A DNA stretch of 64,000 nucleotides, taken from NCBI GenBank assembly GCA_963727625.1, contig CAVSHR010000012.1:96001-160000 (forward strand). Direction: 5' to 3'. Below, piece after piece: positions 1 through 29,479 of the stretch (positions are counted from its first letter, which is position 1; every line of letters begins with the position of its first letter). This DNA is from an uncultured delta proteobacterium. Lineage in GTDB: Bacteria > Desulfobacterota > Binatia > UBA9968. The position numbers were made by a program, and so were the translations under genes. The notes under the pieces are model-generated. The model did not search any database and had not been told where the DNA came from. It worked only from the letters and a program-made list of their open reading frames with translations.

Positions 1-382
1 AGTCGTTGTTGTCGGGCTTGTCGAAGTCAATCACTTTCGCCTGCGCGCCTGCGATTGAGCCGTCTTTTCGGCGATACTCCACCGTCACTCCGTCCACGAG
101 CATGCGGTGCACGGCGCGGTTGCGCTCTAACATAGACGGCGCCTCGGTGCGTGTTAGTTTGCGGTAGGCGTCTTCCAGCGCTTCCGCGGGGAGGTCAGGA
201 TTGAGACGCACTAGCGCCTGGCGCAAGCGGCCTTCGAGAAAAACGTCGCGGTAGTTCGGATCGCTGCGCTCAGCGCCAAGCATACCGACCGCCAGGTCTG
301 GGCCGTGCCGTACCGCGTAGCCGAGCGCTTCGAGCCAGGCGAGTGCGGCTTGCTCGACGACGGATTCGGTGAAGTTGCTCAT
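1..382 (-). CDS. hsdR: Type I restriction endonuclease subunit R, 5' part (runs off window start)
   Basis: Hand translation from ATG at 382: [22 protein letters not shown]...[20 protein letters not shown]...[16 protein letters not shown]...[10 protein letters not shown], a typical HsdR N-terminus. It overlaps the upstream stop (ATGA) and lies downstream of hsdM/hsdS. Confidence 0.93.
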
Positions 383-1382
383 GCGCCGCGCTCCGTCAGC
401 AGATTGATGATCAGCCGCACCATCAAATCCTTGTTAGCTGGAGCGCTTTCGGCGATGAGCAACGCAAGCGCCGTCAGCGCCGACGGGTTCAATGAATGCG
501 CGATATGCTCTTGCCGCAGGTACAGCATGAACAGAAACGAGCCGATGCGCTTGTTGCCGTCAGAAAACGGATGATCCTTGATGACCAGATAGAGCAAGTT
601 GGCGGCTTTCTCTTCGCACGAACGGTACAGGCCCGCGCCGAACATGGTCTGTTCGATGCTGCCGAGAATACCTTCCAACGCCCCGCCACGCGGGTTTCCA
701 AACAACGGCGTGGCTTCCTGGCGCGCCATCAGTTCGCGCTTGAATTCAGCAATCGCCGCGCTGGCTCGGGTGAAATCCAGCACGCCCGACGACTGGCCGG
801 GCACCCGGCGGCAACCCCAGCCGATCCTCGTCATACTCAAGCAAGCAGCCGCCAGGTGTCGGCGTAGCCAGTGATCAATTCCAGGACTGCGCGGCCGGTG
901 TCATCCACCAGCGCCTGGTTTTGCAGAGTGCGCGCTAGAAGATCAAGCGTCTGCCGCGCTTCCAGCAGGCCGCGCTCAGCTAGGCGGGTTTGGTTGAAGC
1001 TGTAACCCCGGACCAAATGCTCGCGCAATACACGCGTGGCCCATTGGCGGAAGCGTACGCCCCGGCGAGAGTTAACCCTGTATCCGACGGAAATGATCGC
1101 GTCTAAATTGTAGTGTTTGAGGCTGCGCCGCACCTGCCGCTTGCCCTCAGTTTGAACTACTAAGAAATCCTTAGCAGTTGCCGCCTCCTCCAATTCACCG
1201 TCATCAAAGACATTTCTCAGGTGCATGAGCACATTTTCAGGGGTAGTGTCGAACAAGTCCGCCACTTGTCGCTGCGTCAGCCAGACCGTCTCCTGCTCCA
1301 GACGAACGTCTACCCGAACCTGACCGTCTGGCGCTTCATACAGTAAAACTTCGCCGCCAGGTGCTTCGGTCGGAGTGCTCAT
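379..1382 (-). pseudogene. rhuM: RhuM-family/Fic-Doc fusion, split by two single-base frameshifts (or sequence errors)
   Basis: ORF 837-1382 has RhuM motifs (ETVWLTQRQVADLF, HYNLDAIISVGYRVNS, FRQWAT). ORF 379-840 has the Fic/Doc motif HPFSDGNKR. The third frame between them reads LEYDEDRLGLPPGARP and would link the two. Confidence 0.85.
1155..1179. repeat. Intragenic inverted repeat in rhuM
   Basis: AACTACTAAG-aaatc-CTTAGCAGTT, 9 of 10 pairs (the mismatch is G-U on the coding-strand RNA). Encodes TAKDFLVV. Confidence 0.8.
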
Positions 1383-1414
1383 GACAGTAGTCCCAATTTA
1401 TGTTCGGGCCAGAC

Positions 1415-1507
1415 TCCTTCGGTTTGAACCGGTGCAATTTTTGCACTTACTGCCCCCGGATCACAATCGCCATCCTTGAAGGCGTTGCGAATATACTTGG
1501 AAAACAC
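1415..1507 (-). pseudogene. Fragment of a second rhuM allele
   Basis: VFSKYIRNAFKDGDCDPGAVSAKIAPVQTEG aligns without gaps to NVLMHLRNVFDDGELEEAATAKDFLVVQTEG of the adjacent RhuM. Contains the palindrome GTGCAA-ttt-TTGCAC (1432-1446). Confidence 0.75.
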
Positions 1508-1522
1508 CGGCTCTGAGCGTAC

Positions 1523-1714
1523 GTCGGGATTGAGACAGACAAGCGACTGCCGCAAGCGGACTCCGAGTACCACATCGCGATAGTTCAGATCACTCCGCTC
1601 GGCGCCGAGCATACCCGACGCGATGTCGGGGCCGTGCAGCACCGCGGAGCCCAGCGCTTCGAGCCAGGCGAGAGCAGCGTCTTCGACGCCGGATTCTGTG
1701 AAGACTGTTGTCAC
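1523..1714 (-). repeat. Diverged copy of the first ~63 codons of hsdR (matches 194-382)
   Basis: [64 protein letters not shown] versus Hsd[64 protein letters not shown]. The GTG start overlaps the stop of the 1711-2781 gene. Confidence 0.92.
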
Positions 1715-2781
1715 GATGTAGCCTTTTTCAAGCAGCGCTTTGCCCAAATGTCATCCACGCTGTCCTTTGTAAATGCTGTTTTGAATTCATCCAAAGCCTT
1801 TTGCGAATAGCGTTTATATAGTTGGCTGCCTATTTTGAATTCCTTATAGCATTCAGGCTTATTTCGAAGCCCAAGATAATCGACGACCGCAATGGCCTTG
1901 GGAATCGATGTTCCAAACTTATCCGCAAGTTGTTTTGCGCCGAGATTGTAAAAATCGAGTTCGTTGACGCGCTTTGCGGCAACGACAGATGCGCCTGGAG
2001 TTCCTTCAGCGACAAGTTGAATGGGGATACCTTCCTTTTTTGATAGACGAAGCGATAGGGTTGCGCCGGCTCCGTCCGCCGCGATCTCAACCGCTGATGC
2101 GCCTTTAAACGCATCGACCCATGTCTTTCCACCCAGAATATCCTTACTCCTCCGTCTTAAGTCCGCGTCGCTCGGCTGTCCTTTTTCGCCTTGGATCGTC
2201 GAGTCTAGTATTGCAAGCGGGCGCAGTCTTGCTAGGGCCTCAATCTGACGACGCTTCCCTGGACGCAGTAGCTTCTTAATCTCTTCGACCTCCGACTCAA
2301 AAAGCGTCGCCAAACTTGTCGGAGGCGAGGTCGAGACTGGCAGCACGCGGGTTGGCAGGTGGCTAACGAGGTCTTCATTGAAGACCTTCTTCAAAAGATC
2401 ACGAAAAAGTGTGACACCCGATTGTATGTGGACATAGAGTTGGCCTTCCGAGATATCAAGAAGGTGATGTTGCGCTGCGTCCCGCAAGCCGTTGATGGTC
2501 TGCAGGACTAGCGCCTGTTCTTCACTGAGAAACTTGATCCTCCCGTCGCTCAAGGCGCGACGTACGCACGCATCAAATCCGATTGTTTCCTTGGCGCGCT
2601 TCTCGCGTATCCGTCCACCTCGATGTAGCAGCGCTGCCTTAAGTAGCATTTCAAAAGCATGATCGAGCTGGATAAGGGTACTACTGACCCGACCACGGTC
2701 GTTCGGTCGATTGAAGAGTTCGATACTAAGCACCAGCGAATCACATGCCTTCTCCAGCAGGAGCTTCGCTTCGCGCTTCAT
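1711..2781 (-). CDS. DUF3644-like protein with HEPN-type Rx4H motif (putative RNase effector)
   Basis: N-terminus LLEKACDSLVLSIELFNRP...AFEMLLKA resembles DUF3644; contains LRDAAQH (R-x4-H); translationally coupled to hsdS (TAATG). Confidence 0.7.
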   Translation of the reverse strand: MKREAKLLLEKACDSLVLSIELFNRPNDRGRVSSTLIQLDHAFEMLLKAALLHRGGRIREKRAKETIGFDACVRRALSDGRIKFLSEEQALVLQTINGLRDAAQHHLLDISEGQLYVHIQSGVTLFRDLLKKVFNEDLVSHLPTRVLPVSTSPPTSLATLFESEVEEIKKLLRPGKRRQIEALARLRPLAILDSTIQGEKGQPSDADLRRRSKDILGGKTWVDAFKGASAVEIAADGAGATLSLRLSKKEGIPIQLVAEGTPGASVVAAKRVNELDFYNLGAKQLADKFGTSIPKAIAVVDYLGLRNKPECYKEFKIGSQLYKRYSQKALDEFKTAFTKDSVDDIWAKRCLKKATS

Positions 2782-4060
2782 TAGGCAACGCTCTCCACAA
2801 TCCGCTCGGCGGCATTTAAACGCAGCTCGCCAGAGATGAGTTTAGGCAGCAACGCGTCGCGCAGTGCCGCGACGGTGCGGTTTTCTCGAATTTTATTCAG
2901 AATAGAAGTGAATTGCGGATGTACTGCTTCGTTGAAACCGTCCACGATTGCCGCAAGCGGTTTAACGAATTGTGCCGCCTTGATTCCAGCCGCGCTTACA
3001 TTCGGTTGTGCACTTCCTTCAGCCCTCGACACAATCTGATCTAAGATGTCGTCGTTCAGAAGCAAACAAAACACAAACCACGGACGGCTCAATTTTGAAC
3101 GAGGGACAAAGCGAGCGACACGTTGATTAAGGACCGCTCGGAGCCTTCGATTCACAAGCAGGCCAAATTTTGCGACGTTGGCACCAGTCATCGCCATTAG
3201 TAAATCACCATCGGTAAGGTGAAGTCCTGAAATTGTGATGCCAACTCGGCCGGCACGTATTCAACATCATAAACGTCAACCGTGCGATCCTCTTTGATGT
3301 TCTTGATCTTCACGACCGGGAAACCGCAATCAACGAAGTCTTTACTCTTGAAAGCAAACCCGCCTTGAACTTCAGTAACCTCCCCAACTGTCCCGACAGC
3401 CCACCCCTTGGGAATCTCCCCCAGTTCCGAGTCCTCGAAGGCATCCGGGAAAAGGTCGGCGAGGGGTTTGGGGAGGCCGGGGTCGCGGCGTTCGGCTTTA
3501 GCGCGGGTGGGGTCAAAGTCCACGAACCACGATTTGAAGAGCGCCCGCGCCATCGCCTCCAGCGTTTCGTTCATTCGCCGGTTCAGTTCGATTTTGTCGT
3601 CCAGTGTACCGAGTATATGGGCGATGGCGCGTTGTTCCTGCTCCGGGAGCGGTGGCCACCAAATCCCTGCGAGCTGCTCACTGGACACATTGGGAAAGGT
3701 CGAGCCTGTGGCCTGTGCGAGGAGATCGGGGAGGTTGTACTCGATGACTGCTCGAACGAAGGGCTGAAGATCAGGCTTCGTCTTATGTCGGATCGCCGCC
3801 ACTCCGCGCCCGATCGCGTACTCGCGATCGGCCCAGTTCATCCGGCCCGTCGTTGACCCACGAACGCAAAACAGCACGTCGCCTGGGCGCGCTCGCTTAC
3901 GCGCGTCTGTTGTGAACTGCACAGGTGTCGGGTGATGTGGGCCGTACTCTGTTGGCCCATTCAGCAACGGCAGGCCGATGCTCGCCTCGTTACAAGTCTC
4001 TCCGGGCGGAGACTGACCCATCACGATATCGGCGAATGCACTGAGCGAGCTACCCGCCAT
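2781..4060 (-). pseudogene. hsdS: Type I R-M specificity subunit S, frameshifted near 3218-3222
   Basis: TRD1 (IVMGQSP...AIGRGVAAI...GSTF), central conserved region (EQRAIAHILGTLDDKIELNRRMNETLEAMARALFKSWFVDF...SELGEIPKGW), and TRD2 plus C-terminal LRDALLPKLISGELR in the second ORF. Adding one base restores ...DF(x)LTDGDLLMAMTGA. Confidence 0.9.
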
Positions 4061-4124
4061 ACCCAAGCTCCTTCAAGTTTGCGGCGATAGCGGCGTCAAG
4101 CTTCGCTGCTTCTTTCTGCTTCAC
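4050..4124 (-). repeat. hsdM 3'-tail copy 3 (mini-[27 protein letters not shown])
   Basis: Matches the HsdM C-terminus [22 protein letters not shown]. Its GTG overlaps the yhcG stop (GTGA) and its end contains the hsdS ATG. Confidence 0.93.
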
Positions 4125-5245
4125 GACTTCTTCGTCCTTACTCTATGCCTTGGTTTCGCCGACAACTCCGCTTCAATTTCCTCGACAGTCGGCAGGGCCG
4201 ATCGCAGTTCGCTTGGCAGCGCTCGCGTCAGTTCATAGATGGAGATCCCGATGGGCTTGTCGATGCCGGCGAAACTATATTCCGCCAGCAATCTGCCGTG
4301 CTCCTGGCAAAGGATCAGGCCGATGGTGGGCTGATCGTCGGGCCGCTTGAGGCGGTCGTTGACGACGTTGCAGTAGAAGTTGAGCTTGCCGGCGTACTCG
4401 GGTTTGAACTTCCCCTTCTTCAAATCGATGACGACGAAGGCGCGCAGGCGCAGATGATAGAAAAGCAGATCGATGTAGAAATCCTCGTCACCGACATCGA
4501 GCCGGTACTGCCGCCCCACGAAGGCGAACCCCTGGCCGAGCTCAAGCAGGAACGCTTCGAGATGGCGCATCAGCTGGGTCTCGAGCTCGCGCTCGTGGAA
4601 AGGTTCGCTCAAGGTGAGAAAGTCGAAGATGTAGGGATCTTTCAGCGCTTGCTGCGCGAGATCCGACTGCGGCGCGGGAAGAGTGGCCGCAAAATTGGAA
4701 ACCGTCTTGCCGTGCCGGACGTGAGCCTTGGCGCCGATCTGCAAGGCAAGGACGTTGCGGCTCCAACCGTTGGCGAGCGTCTGCTCCATGTACCAGTGGC
4801 GAGTGGAAATATCCTTGATCTTCTCGATCAGCATAACGTGGTGCGCCCAGGGAACTGTCCAGAACAAGCTTTCCCCCAAAAGTGCCACCGGCTGTGGCAC
4901 TTTTGGCGCGGAGCGAATTTGTGCCGCAGCCTGCGGCACAATTGCAGCCGGGGCGCGGTATTCCCGGTAGAAAGAAAGCATCCGTTTGATGTTTCGCTCG
5001 GAAAAGCCTTTAACCTCGGGCAGTTCATTGTGCAGAGCAAGTGCCAGACGGGGAATGACAGCCGCGCCCCAGCCTTCGCGCTGTTGACGACCATCAATGA
5101 TCCTGCCGATATCCCAGTACAGACGAACCAGCTCCGCGTTGACCGACAACACTGCCCGGGTCTGCGCCGCTTGGATGCGGCTCTTCACATCGGCGAGCAA
5201 CGCCGCAAAGTCGGAGCGAACGACGGCGGAGTTCTTACCCGCCAT
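4121..5245 (-). CDS. yhcG: YhcG/DUF1016 family PD-(D/E)XK nuclease-like protein
   Basis: Motifs [72 protein letters not shown]. Confidence 0.92.
4876..4941. repeat. Two tandem intragenic palindromes in yhcG
   Basis: CCAAAAGTGCCAC-cggct-GTGGCACTTTTGG (4876-4906, perfect 13-bp arms) and TTGTGCCGCAG-c-CTGCGGCACAA (4919-4941). Centres are 39 bp apart. They encode KVPQPVALL and IVPQAAAQI. Confidence 0.9.
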
Positions 5246-5336
5246 ATCCCAGCTCTTTCAGGTTAGCGGCAATGGCAGCATCGAGTTTCGCGGCTTCTTT
5301 CTGCTGCTCACGCAGCGTCGCGGCGAGGCGCTTCAT
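5235..5336 (-). repeat. hsdM 3'-tail copy 2 (mini-[36 protein letters not shown])
   Basis: 102 bp, 89/102 identical by hand count to hsdM 6223-6324. Differences are mostly synonymous. Its end contains the yhcG ATG. Confidence 0.95.
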
Positions 5337-5365
5337 TTTTTTATTCCAATAGATCGTAGTTGGTT

Positions 5366-5995
5366 TCATTTCTTCTTCGGCCTGTAATCATTGGGATCAA
5401 GGCATTGATCGTAGGTTGCCCTGTCGATCTTGATCCACTCCGTGCCATTGATGCCACGGCGGTTCCCGGCAGTTGGGCTACTGGGAAAAGCGCAAGCTAC
5501 TTTGATCCACCGGGACTGTTCGACGGAAATAGCCCTGACTTCATCCGCCGCCTCCGAGAGATCCTGGTCCTGGCTAAAAACCAGCGCGACATCGTAAAGA
5601 TTCTCACGCGCCAGCCGTACCATATCTAGAGCGATCCTGATGTCGATGCCTTTCTCTTGGCCGACAAGGATTGTCGTGACGCTGCGATCCGGCAGTTGAA
5701 TCGTCTGGTTGCGGTAGCGCAGGGAACGGGAAAACGTATTAATTCCCCTTGTTCCCATGACAGCCAATTTTGCGGACCAAAAATGATTCCAGAAAGGGTT
5801 GTCCGTGGCGTCGGGTATTCCGCTGTAAAAAAACGTCTCTGCCAGGGTCCAGCCGCGAGCGGACGCAATGGATGCGGCTAGATTTTTGGGCTCGTAGTTA
5901 GGATAGGGATAGCCGAAGGCTTTTTTCGCGGCGTAGAAAAGGTTCTGTCCGTCAACGAACGCGTAAGTTCGTTTGACCGTGGGCTCAGGAGGCAT
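5366..5995 (-). CDS. NYN-domain (LabA/DUF88, PIN-like) ribonuclease
   Basis: Acidic motifs [23 protein letters not shown]; RBS GGGGAGG upstream. Confidence 0.9.
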
Positions 5996-6009
5996 ATTCG
6001 CCTCCCCAG

Positions 6010-6062
6010 AAAAACAAAACCCCGCTGGAGGCCTTGCGGCTGATCCAACGGGGGGAAAATAC
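6010..6062 (-). ncRNA. Candidate structured leader / small RNA upstream of the NYN gene
   Basis: Minus-strand RNA CCCCGUUGGA-uca-GCC-GCAA-GGC-c-UCCAGCGGGG followed by UUUUGUUUUU: a 10-bp stem with a G-U pair, a GNRA tetraloop and a U-tract. Confidence 0.55.
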
Positions 6063-6069
6063 TGAATGT

Positions 6070-6098
6070 AATTTAGCCTGGGAGAGGGGGAGTGTCAA
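6070..6098 (-). promoter_or_regulatory. sigma70-type promoter for the NYN leader and gene
   Basis: TTGACA (6098-6093), 17-bp spacer, TAAATT (6075-6070). Confidence 0.7.
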
Positions 6099-6161
6099 GT
6101 GTGCAAAGGATCGATATCTCCCATCGTGGTCGCTAAAGGCATCGGGCCGATAGCGCATCTC

Positions 6162-6222
6162 CCAGGGGATTTGTCCAACAAGCTTTTGAACAAATCCGCG
6201 CCTTCTGAACTTTGCAGCGCTC

Positions 6223-6233
<11 letters not shown>
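6162..6233 (-). pseudogene. Remnant of a second yhcG-like allele directly after hsdM
   Basis: Starts MASKSAA (intact YhcG starts MAGKNSA), then FVQKLVGQIPW, similar to the DUF1016 VQQxxxQIPW segment. Contains the inverted repeat GGATTTGT...ACAAATCC (6167-6197). Confidence 0.55.
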
Positions 6234-7794
<1,561 letters not shown>

Positions 7795-8291
7795 GTGATT
7801 TACATCGATTTATTTTACTCTAGCGGAAATGCTTCTTTCGCCTCACGTTATGACGAAATTTACGTGAGTTCATAGGCGGACTTTATTGATGTGTTTCCAC
7901 GTTCCCGCAATTTGCGTGTTCCGAGTTGGAGTCGGAACACCGGCAGGGTGGAATTCGCCAATTCCCGGATCGCCGCTCGGAAGATTCTAGTCGAAACGGC
8001 TAAACGTGCCAAGACTTAAACAAGGCGGGAGTGGAAAAGCCGTGGGCGTGCTCGTGGGGGATGACGTACGTGGGCGGGGATGGATTGTTTTCGTTTAATC
8101 CATTTAAGTTGATTATTGAGGTTTGTAAAATATTGTGACGGATCGCAATGCTTTTTCCCCTATGAATGTCGGCCAAAAGCTAGTCACTATAATCTGCAAA
8201 CATCAATAATCGCTACGCTCCGTCCAAATCGTCTAAATCGGATAGGCAACGGAGAATGGAGAAAGGATGGAGGGGAACCCAGCCAGGCCTT

Positions 8292-28684: not shown

Positions 28685-29479
28685 ATGATTGAAGGGTTGA
28701 AGGAGAAAGTCGTCATTGTCACCGGCGGGGCCCACGGCATCGGTAAAGCCTACTGCTTGGGCTTCGCCAAAGCGGGCGCGAAAGTTGTCATCGCGGACAT
28801 CGATGAACCCGCAGCGGAGCGTGCGGTCGGCGAAATTAGCGAGGCCATCGGTATCGGCGTAGGGGCGATTCATGAATCGCCCCTACATGCGCTGCAGGTC
28901 GATGTATCGAATGAAGAGGCGACCCAGCGAATGGCAGCGCGCACGCTCGAGCGCTTCGGCCGCCTCGATGTGCTGATTAACAACGCGGCGGTTTTTTCCG
29001 TCGTGCCGATGAACCGCGGCCGGATCGAGACCATCGACCCCGAGGAGTGGGACCGGCTGATGGCGGTCAATCTGCGCGGCCTATTTTTCTGCTGCCGAGC
29101 CGTGCTGCCGGCCATGCGCCGGCAGAAATCCGGCAAGATCATCACCATTGCGTCGGGCACGGTCTTCGCCGGCGCGCCCGGGAGGATTCACTACGTCACA
29201 TCGAAAGCGGCGACCATCGGTTTCACCCGCACGCTCGCCCGCGAGGCCGGCGACGACAACATCACCGTCAACTGTCTGGCGCCCGGCAACACGCTATCGG
29301 AAGAAAACCCGACCAAACAGATGATCAAGTTCCGCGAATCGTCAGTCGTCATGAGATCGCTCAAAAGAATCCAGCTGCCGCAAGATGTCGTCGGTGCCAT
29401 GTTGTTCCTCGCCTCGCCGCTGAGCGATTTCATCACCGGGCAGACCATCAACGTCGACGGCGGGATATCGTTCCTGTGA
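28685..29479 (+). CDS. Short-chain dehydrogenase/reductase (carries an in-frame REP)
   Basis: TGGAHGIG, NNAA, YVTSK, ITGQTINVDGG. Confidence 0.93.
   Translation: MIEGLKEKVVIVTGGAHGIGKAYCLGFAKAGAKVVIADIDEPAAERAVGEISEAIGIGVGAIHESPLHALQVDVSNEEATQRMAARTLERFGRLDVLINNAAVFSVVPMNRGRIETIDPEEWDRLMAVNLRGLFFCCRAVLPAMRRQKSGKIITIASGTVFAGAPGRIHYVTSKAATIGFTRTLAREAGDDNITVNCLAPGNTLSEENPTKQMIKFRESSVVMRSLKRIQLPQDVVGAMLFLASPLSDFITGQTINVDGGISFL
28859..28886. repeat. GTAG-family REP palindrome inside the SDR gene
   Basis: Perfect 28-bp palindrome GTAGGGGCGATTCATGAATCGCCCCTAC, translated as VGAIHESPL. Confidence 0.88.

Follow-up and report, generated by a model that had tools for sequence, protein, structure and literature searches.

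The operon and its palindromes

We analysed a 64,000-nucleotide stretch of DNA from an uncultured delta proteobacterium (contig CAVSHR010000012.1, positions 96,001 to 160,000; hereafter the window). It contains an operon with two candidate defence genes, rhuM and yhcG, that carry DNA palindromes written in frame into their codons. Across homologues of both genes the Watson-Crick symmetry of these palindromes is kept by paired changes in the two arms, at the cost of amino-acid changes, and we consider it very probable that they are DNA-level elements maintained by selection. Five were located in the window, two of them within scars, the short remnants of a rhuM and of a yhcG-like gene:

1155-1179, minus strand: rhuM palindrome, 10-nt arms with 9 of 10 positions paired, 5-nt centre, encoding residues 68-76
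1427-1451, minus strand: decayed palindrome of the rhuM scar, perfect 6-bp arms at 1432-1446, 6 of the 10 family arm pairs kept
4876-4906, minus strand: yhcG palindrome, perfect 13-bp arms, 5-nt centre, axis 4891 on the first base of codon 119
4919-4941, minus strand: yhcG palindrome, perfect 11-bp arms, 1-nt centre, axis 4930 on the first base of codon 106
6167-6197, minus strand: palindrome of the yhcG-like scar, of the YhcG type, with 12 of 15 positions paired and its axis (6182) on a first codon base

The axis of the rhuM palindrome (1167) is the third base of codon 72, the same axis as that of 64 of the 70 RhuM hairpins scoring at least 8 in the survey described below, and the axis of the rhuM-scar palindrome (1439) is also a third codon base. 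The two yhcG axes are spaced by 39 nt (13 codons) within one open reading frame (ORF). All five palindromes of the initial annotation were thus recovered at their coordinates, as was the register shared by each gene and its scar, the third base for rhuM and the first base for yhcG.

The two yhcG palindromes rank second and third among the longest perfect hairpins of the 64-kb window. For this length a uniform model predicts 0.137 hairpins with arms of at least 11 bp and 0.009 with arms of at least 13 bp, and the whole 6.6-Mb genome contains 168 hairpins with arms of at least 11 bp, about 1 per 39 kb. The two yhcG palindromes are therefore far beyond chance by themselves. The rhuM hairpin and both scar hairpins, taken alone, are at chance level (about 140 perfect 6-bp hairpins are expected per 64 kb); they are meaningful solely because they are placed on the family-wide axis.

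The 13-mer arm and both full yhcG palindrome patterns occur once in 6.6 Mb, and the 11-mer arm occurs 3 times, so that the yhcG palindromes do not form a repeat family. The RhuM signature has 2 unrelated matches genome-wide. A repeat family or a miniature inverted-repeat transposable element (MITE) was discarded on these counts. Separately, a 28-bp perfect palindrome, GTAGGGGC...GCCCCTAC, lies at window positions 28859-28886 and recurs elsewhere in the genome, at G000 C2:49050, C2:52066, C2:263472 and C11:25396. It looks like a GTAG-tagged palindromic repeat family of the repetitive extragenic palindromic (REP) kind.

Within window positions 1-7800 every gene is on the minus strand. The features are listed in the order of transcription:

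6223-7794, minus strand: hsdM, first in transcription order
5985-6239, minus strand: yhcG-like scar ORF directly after hsdM, with the palindrome segment and a weak remnant of a nuclease motif at 5989-6030
5366-5995, minus strand: NYN-domain gene (PADLOC HEC-09), after the yhcG-like scar
5236-5305, minus strand: copy of the hsdM 3' end, between the NYN gene and yhcG
4121-5245, minus strand: yhcG, with DUF1016_N and YhcG_C (PADLOC PDC-S02)
4051-4120, minus strand: copy of the hsdM 3' end, between yhcG and hsdS
3197-4066 and 2781-3197, minus strand: hsdS in two pieces, after the second extra copy of the hsdM 3' end
1711-2781, minus strand: DUF3644 gene (PADLOC PDC-S19)
1379-1747, minus strand: chimeric ORF, a duplicated hsdR 5' end (1505-1703) fused to a RhuM fragment (about 1415-1516)
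837-1382, minus strand: rhuM ORF (PF13310; PADLOC PDC-S05/PDC-S23)
379-840, minus strand: Fic ORF, the continuation of the rhuM ORF, with the reading frame broken between the two
2-382, minus strand: real start of hsdR, last in transcription order

The locus is a Type I restriction-modification operon with candidate defence genes stacked into it. RhuM matches PF13310 with 90.7 bits against a cut-off of 33.7, and PDC-S05 with an E-value of 2.1e-74. Both domains of YhcG were detected, YhcG_C (PF06250) with 213.5 bits and DUF1016_N (PF17761) with 128.6 bits, together with PDC-S02 at an E-value of 2.7e-139. The PDC-S23 models, which are single proteins of about 330 amino acids, cover the rhuM ORF and the Fic ORF together, from which we deduced a break in the reading frame between the two. 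The expected joining peptide is encoded by a third short ORF (746-844). The rhuM-Fic gene is probably a pseudogene, or else the assembly contains indel errors. The hsdS pieces are adjacent ORFs of 289 and 138 amino acids with a Methylase_S match in the first only, and with hsdS split the restriction system may be defective.

Three copies of the hsdM 3' end (4051-4120, 5236-5305 and 6224-6293, 83-89% identical) and two of the hsdR 5' end (176-374 and 1505-1703, 78% identical) were identified. The extra copies each flank an inserted cargo gene, namely the NYN gene, yhcG or rhuM-Fic. From this arrangement, the operon seems to have grown by the stacking of modules through recombination in the conserved hsdM and hsdR ends. 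No recombinase or integrase was found among the ten ORFs scanned, the wider neighbourhood lying outside this search.

Position, codon register and symmetry in the RhuM and YhcG families

Homologues were collected into a YhcG set of 106 coding sequences, including 80 loci from one-genome-per-species contigs, and a RhuM set of 92, including 80 metagenome loci. The wide YhcG sample covers Planctomycetota, Cyanobacteria, Chlamydiae, Bacteroidota and Deinococcus as well as three archaeal genomes, two of Methanotrichaceae/Methanosaeta and one of Nanoarchaeota. Comparing RhuM with YhcG by hhalign returned a probability of 0.3%, with no detectable homology. A common ancestry of the two segments was rejected on this basis, and the two cargo families are unrelated, as had been proposed.

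The top-scoring hairpin of the whole RhuM coding sequence is centred 6-10 codons before an anchor glycine in 79 of the 92 genes. For YhcG, the top hairpin lies 6-10 codons before an anchor tryptophan in 53 of the 106 genes; in a further 48 it is found within the variable linker, no more than 60 codons ahead of this tryptophan, and in 5 it lies elsewhere. The axis falls on the first codon base in 138 of 147 YhcG hairpins, and the central unpaired stretch measures 1, 3 or 5 nt in nearly all hairpins of both families. Most of the 22 RhuM genes scoring below 8, among which the one of the window, have 10-nt arms with one mismatch. Altogether, a palindrome is found at one register in 99 of the 106 YhcG genes and in at least 70 of the 92 RhuM genes, in bacteria and archaea. 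The YhcG element is present in one copy in 61 genes, two copies in 30, three in 6 and four in 2.

The same picture is obtained at close and at large distances. In related genomes, hairpins scoring at least 8 are found at the aligned motif before PW.H in 25 of 27 YhcG genes, with 1-3 copies per gene and arms of 9-15 bp that are different in every gene, and all 11 RhuM genes from relatives carry a palindrome with 9-13-bp arms at the aligned A-T-x-x-K-x-x-x-V, just before VQTEG. The three DUF1016_N genes of the genome under study have in-register palindromes of the family type with arms different in each. In Escherichia coli K-12, yhcG contains three tandem palindromes (arms of 13, 16 and 15 nt, axis on the first codon base), and dinD contains one with 15-nt arms and one mismatch. 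Two palindromes of the family type are retained in one of the three DUF1016_N genes of the genome under study, which is truncated and lacks the nuclease domain. This gene (locus L213, G000 C5:699920-700529) encodes 203 amino acids with DUF1016_N only, and its linker also holds two unrelated perfect palindromes with 9- and 10-bp arms. In one YhcG subfamily (L023-L026 and L194), a second palindrome of the family type is located earlier in the N-terminal domain, at about residues 60-70, in addition to the copy before the W-x-H motif.

In both families the element is 25-31 bp long, with four semi-conserved outer base pairs and hypervariable inner arms. The RhuM element, just before the VQTEG motif, can be written C-AACT-N6-(5 nt, A/T-rich)-N6-AGTT-C; its complementarity is 92-100% at positions 3-12 and drops to 27% at position 13. 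The YhcG element, before the PW.H motif, reads AATT-N8-(1-5 nt)-N8-AATT, with its edge at positions 13/14. In 140 YhcG hairpins the inner arms take 64 different sequences, and the RhuM arms fall into at least 20 types. Between copies within one gene, arm identity ranges from 0 to 1.0, with a mean of 0.64 for a background of 0.53.

The observed symmetry was compared with synonymous shuffles, in which the 16 codons before the anchor were resampled 200 times per gene from the gene's own codon usage. The mean best hairpin score was 9.48 for RhuM versus 4.87 in shuffles, and 8.15 for YhcG versus 4.37. At most 10 of the 200 shuffles reached the observed score in 74 of the 92 RhuM genes and in 61 of the 106 YhcG genes, the remaining YhcG palindromes being located further upstream. 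Next, pairing was counted on the 92 RhuM 37-mers cut at a fixed codon offset and unselected for hairpin score. Cells were paired at 92.1% versus 69.5% in shuffles and both sides were changed in 237 cells versus 70.9, neither value being reached in any of 500 shuffles. Double changes affected 9 of the 10 pairs, the covariation score was 0.666 versus 0.242 in shuffles, and pairing fell to 21-41% when the partner was slid by 1-3 columns. Likewise, in 77 distinct RhuM 25-mers with a fixed axis, unselected for score, 668 of 770 arm positions are Watson-Crick, including 262 of the 308 pairs formed by two third-codon bases. In YhcG, an axis fixed 6 codons before the tryptophan gave 66.2% Watson-Crick pairs versus 23-29% when slid, and 41 of the 106 genes had at least 10 of 11 pairs, versus 0-1 when slid.

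Since synonymous shuffles fall short of the observed symmetry and third-base pairs are complementary, the constraint bears on the nucleic acid and not on the peptide, and an origin of the palindromes as a by-product of the peptide was ruled out. The proposal that symmetry, position and codon register are conserved while the sequence and the encoded residues vary, made from the window alone together with the codon-shuffled control that it called for, is borne out in the homologues of both families. The RhuM peptide follows the DNA: the first two bases of a codon are the pairing partners, in reverse order, of the first two bases of the mirror codon, and the residues therefore covary as T-V, I-I, R-R, K-F, C-H and E-S.

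The protein context was examined on AlphaFold2 models. In the YhcG model, built on a 17-row alignment, residues 99-125, which contain both palindromes, have a predicted local distance difference test (pLDDT) below 50 and are located between a helix (83-95) and the PW.H helices. Owing to this low pLDDT and this position between helices, the segment resembles a tolerant linker, which it probably is. The RhuM model (11 rows) has a mean pLDDT of only 58 overall and of 71-90 over residues 30-110, where helices are modelled at 37-43 and 48-60, then a shorter one at 66-69, and strands 70-79 and 82-91 form a beta hairpin. The palindrome would thus encode the last part of the short helix together with the first wing-like strand, in the confidently modelled part of the protein, and it lies between the predicted recognition helix and the first wing strand. 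No match was found for YhcG or RhuM in a sequence search of the PDB at E-values up to 1, nor for the RhuM model, whose mean pLDDT is limited as stated, in a Foldseek search of the PDB at E-values up to 0.001.

Two palindromes outside the families were used as controls. The DUF3644 gene of the operon contains a 9-bp perfect in-frame palindrome (2369-2387) that is retained in none of 5 homologues; it is therefore a chance feature and serves as a negative control, and DUF3644 was not kept as a third cargo family. Two amidohydrolase paralogues (G000 C5:488651-490330 and C4:1068023-1069693) carry at the same codon a palindrome with 10-bp arms, encoded by a GKIRGPRIW peptide nearly invariant in 30 homologues. 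One freely variable synonymous pair in it is complementary in only 13 of the 30 (counted by eye), and this weak complementarity at synonymous sites identifies the palindrome as a by-product of the peptide. The comparison shows that correction between arms is by itself not enough, in these organisms, to maintain the symmetry of a 10-bp quasi-palindrome. The amidohydrolase control came from a genome-wide list of in-ORF hairpins, which was noisy (132 of 275) in this G+C-rich genome with its many chance open frames. The list also pointed to an ORF6N-domain gene on the same contig as the window (G000 C12:309126-309671, PF10543, E-value 7.5e-34). It has a perfect palindrome with 13-bp arms at about residue 70, and another with 15-bp arms lies just beyond its 3' end (309081-309110).

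The amidohydrolase result bears on the main rival explanation, a quasi-palindrome without function that perpetuates itself. In quasi-palindrome correction, intrastrand template switching during replication reverts a mismatch or copies it to the other arm, and symmetry could persist by this mutational bias wherever the protein tolerates it. Several features of the elements are those expected from such a process: strict Watson-Crick pairing with no wobble preference, centres always of odd length with the axis on a base, and arms with more double than single changes at every divergence level. The tandem duplication that gives 1-4 copies per gene, the extra non-family palindromes in the L213 linker and the location of the YhcG copies in a low-confidence, probably tolerant linker agree with it as well. 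However, the amidohydrolase pair is complementary in 13 of 30 cases as against 262 of 308 third-base pairs in RhuM, both scar copies of the window are decaying, the RhuM palindrome is predicted to encode a confidently modelled strand and not a free linker, and a single register is retained in nearly all YhcG and most RhuM genes of bacteria and archaea. We consequently regard this explanation as improbable. Instead, we infer that purifying selection maintains the symmetry as a feature of DNA structure.

A hairpin in the mRNA, which might for instance pause translation, be cut by an RNase or bind the protein that the gene encodes, would produce the same form of covariation as the one observed, which is that of an RNA helix. 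Most of the few mismatches noted at the outset were sense-strand G:T pairs, and the third-base pairs of RhuM include 14 G:T for 4 A:C, an excess that we regard as weak. Over all arm positions, however, G:T does not exceed A:C, with 25 G:T versus 33 A:C in the unselected RhuM sample and 9 versus 15 in the score-selected YhcG hairpins; the RhuM hairpins selected by score have 7 versus 5. Wobble pairs occupy only about 3% of the cells, and they are usually commoner than this in real RNA helices. Moreover, a search of window positions 1-8000 against Rfam 15 at E-values up to 5 returned four weak matches, none of them at a palindrome. In the absence of a G:T excess the symmetry is strictly Watson-Crick, which fits DNA better than mRNA, either as a duplex palindrome, as a cruciform or as hairpins on either strand. 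The mRNA structures envisaged at first thus lost ground, and we consider them very unlikely.

Scars and orphan palindromes

The scars of the window carry decaying copies that come from other alleles: neither palindrome has the sequence of those in the resident genes, and they keep only the 6 of 10 and 12 of 15 pairs listed above. The rhuM scar corresponds to RhuM residues of about 46-80, that is 35 codons (46-80 by blastx, positions 47-80 of the hidden Markov model, HMM), and its last residues are the EG of VQTEG. The yhcG scar aligns with YhcG residues of about 84-111 and stops after PW. Both scars had been described as consisting largely of the palindrome segment. This is partly right; the yhcG scar ORF also has a weak second remnant, that of the GFAFVGRQ nuclease motif (residues of about 214-227), at 5989-6030 with blastx E-values of 4.6-8.4.

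Orphan palindromes of the family type were also detected in 443 kb of unmasked flanks of other loci, at L116, L076, L174, L192 and L169, some of them being little more than the 25-bp unit. The layout at L169 is that of the window, with an hsdR 5' fragment followed by a RhuM palindrome and then a new rhuM. In 257 kb of RhuM loci, 47 perfect palindromes with the RhuM signature fall within RhuM genes and a further 4 do not; of these 4, the one at L042 is probably part of a truncated RhuM gene. The entire 6.6-Mb genome has 2. In one metagenome locus (L194:1133-1510), the gene that comes after an hsdM 3' end is a YhcG cut short about 30 codons beyond its second palindrome, with a full rhuM directly behind it. 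Here too, the tail of a cargo gene has been replaced by a second cargo gene.

These observations raise the possibility that the palindrome is a hot spot for breakage or recombination, which would drive the replacement and stacking of cargo genes in restriction-modification operons, in line with the cassette turnover suggested in the initial annotation. The segment is retained in both scars of the window, which stop 7-12 nt beyond it, orphans are found beside genes at the five loci above, the 4 RhuM-signature palindromes outside RhuM genes in 257 kb contrast with the 2 in 6.6 Mb, and the locus is visibly stacked, with its three hsdM 3' ends and two hsdR 5' ends. However, the orphan search targeted palindromes and is biased for that reason, so that it cannot show a preferential retention of the segment. 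A palindrome-independent HMM search, itself insensitive to scars of 9-25 codons and having missed the yhcG scar of the window, recovered four orphan fragments elsewhere, at HMM positions 7-29, 81-110 and 154-191 for RhuM and 193-232 for YhcG, none of which covers the segment. In addition, the arms differ between alleles and offer no homology for exchange, the ten ORFs scanned include no recombinase, and second-order selection for turnover would be a weak force for a retention above 90%. Such a hot spot is accordingly quite improbable as the reason for the palindromes.

Proposed function and comparison with known systems

In both families the palindrome is upstream of the effector part and goes with the N-terminal module: it follows the DNA-binding-like module, precedes the effector part and is kept when the nuclease domain is missing. 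The initial annotation had put forward allele-specific operators bound by the product of the gene. A double-stranded operator of this kind, read in its sequence by a dimer of the gene's own product, would account for the symmetry of the site, for the helix-turn-helix-like segment predicted just upstream of it in both proteins, for the semi-conserved outer 4 bp, spaced by 21-23 bp centre to centre, and for the distribution of the arms into discrete types. Complementarity is nevertheless 92-100% at each of 10-12 arm positions, hypervariable inner ones included, and extends across the whole 10-13-bp arm almost to the centre, which exceeds what half-site readout needs. Furthermore, copies in one gene range from identical to completely different, the arms that were checked have no other palindromic copy in the genome, and orphans near a gene differ from the resident palindrome. 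We judge a sequence-specific operator highly improbable; together with the RNA hairpin, it is the explanation that fits the data least well.

We propose that the palindrome is a 25-31-bp DNA element capable of forming a hairpin or a cruciform, written into the codons of two unrelated families of defence candidates. It would act as a self-contained cis site that travels with the ORF, the rationale being that rhuM and yhcG genes are promoter-less passengers of foreign operons. The site might be read as DNA, either by the N-terminal DNA-binding module that the gene itself encodes or by some other factor specific for structure, and this reading would control transcription into the downstream effector part. 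Taken in full, from the family-wide DNA element capable of forming a hairpin or a cruciform to its selection and its action in cis, the proposal is tentative and somewhat short of probable; the mechanism of control in cis, considered by itself, is doubtful. A more specific version, which we think unlikely, would make the palindrome a portable intragenic operator defined by its structure, recognised in its shape by the gene's own N-terminal module and giving a self-control independent of any promoter. Being written into the codons, such an operator would be inseparable from its gene by recombination, and its sequence would be free to drift provided that both arms change together. It could possibly also sense a trigger by titration.

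Several points weigh against these proposals. The 80 + 80 wide-sample loci are the best matches to the window's own proteins; the homologues are related, so that the counts overstate their independence; and the YhcG hairpin set used for the register and mismatch counts was chosen by hairpin score. The unpublished genomes G005, G035 and G041 supply 3 of the 106 YhcG, 2 of the 92 RhuM and 2 of the 30 control rows. Several of the small counts were read by eye from printed rows. The centre of the YhcG palindrome is G+C-rich, a composition that hinders cruciform extrusion, and with 10-14 bp the arms are near the short end of the range for this process in vivo. No RNA data set was listed for window positions 800-7800, the data sets listed being of DNA and of small share. 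Pairs of the same arm type are 0.58 identical in the N-domain for 0.47 between different types, and the corresponding values in the core are 0.66 and 0.60; the arms thus track the N-domain only slightly better than the core. Lastly, binding, structure formation and regulation are all steps that we infer.

If the symmetry is selected, the palindromes represent a DNA element within widespread genes that is conserved by structure and not by sequence, strongly enough to dictate the encoded amino acids. Both families consist of uncharacterised candidate anti-phage genes, including yhcG and dinD of E. coli K-12, and the palindrome may offer a first way to find out what they recognise or what controls them. 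For annotation, the motifs I-V-Q-Q-L-V-G-Q-L and A-T-x-x-K-x-x-x-V are at least partly shadows of a DNA constraint, and small orphan palindromes can mark the former sites of such genes. If the palindromes are instead a self-maintaining product of mutation, they would be a natural example, of unusual clarity, of how template-switch drive can shape a protein sequence during long evolution.

Among known systems, quasi-palindrome correction is a mutational process and not an element. It is a route to exactly complementary arms and could change both of them in a single event, but it leaves unexplained the restriction to certain families, the fixed register and the retention above 90%. Intragenic operators such as lac O2 in lacZ are specific in sequence for one regulator and are conserved in sequence. 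Like lac O2, the palindromes may be cis-acting DNA sites inside a coding sequence, by analogy; unlike it, their sequence is free and symmetry alone is kept.

The hairpins of integron attC sites, of REP elements with their REP-associated tyrosine transposases (RAYT) and of the IS200/IS605 elements resemble the palindromes in having a conserved hairpin structure with a variable sequence. They are located at the ends of elements or cassettes or in intergenic regions, and they have a dedicated recombinase or transposase. An attC site, at the 3' end of its cassette, has imperfect arms with extrahelical bases and is served by an integrase. The present sites, unlike attC, are in the middle of ORFs and have perfect arms, and the scan of ten ORFs, which did not extend to the wider neighbourhood, found no integrase. 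REP sequences and REPINs, their hairpin-forming doublets, are extragenic and multi-copy, whereas the palindromes are intragenic and single-copy in full length (the comparison included no search for a RAYT).

No account of palindromes in genes of the yhcG/DUF1016, rhuM, Bro-N or ORF6N families came up in the literature search, and publications containing both 'DUF1016' and 'palindrome' use the two terms, in their available portions, in unrelated contexts only. DUF1016 and RhuM genes have been reported as enriched beside the targets of programmed inversion, in a study whose accessible sections contain nothing on palindromes (PMC9881135). Two published phenomena come closest, both considered here from the accessible parts of their descriptions. 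In the mitochondria of hairworms (Nematomorpha), perfect inverted repeats of up to 284 bp lie in conserved coding regions of functional proteins (PMC6649704). The window shares with them in-frame perfect inverted repeats in intact genes, most of the ORFs here being open, and a compromise between protein sequence and DNA secondary structure. The hairworm repeats, as described there, are long, numerous and spread across one organelle genome, whereas the palindromes are 25-31 bp long, bound to families, in a fixed register and with covarying arms, and the neighbouring DUF3644 gene is devoid of a conserved palindrome.

Rickettsia palindromic elements (RPE) are mobile repeats of 100-150 nt that fall into few classes and are found in many unrelated genes of one genome (PMC4316617, citing Ogata et al. 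2000, 2002). As far as this account describes them, RPE and in-frame MITEs share with the palindromes the presence of palindromic DNA inside ORFs whose reading frame is unbroken. Unlike RPE, the full palindromes are single-copy in the genome and form a constant feature of their families and not an insertion, the number of extra YhcG copies being the only one to vary. The hairworm repeats and RPE are thus the closest published phenomena, and the palindromes of rhuM and yhcG lack features that define each of the two.

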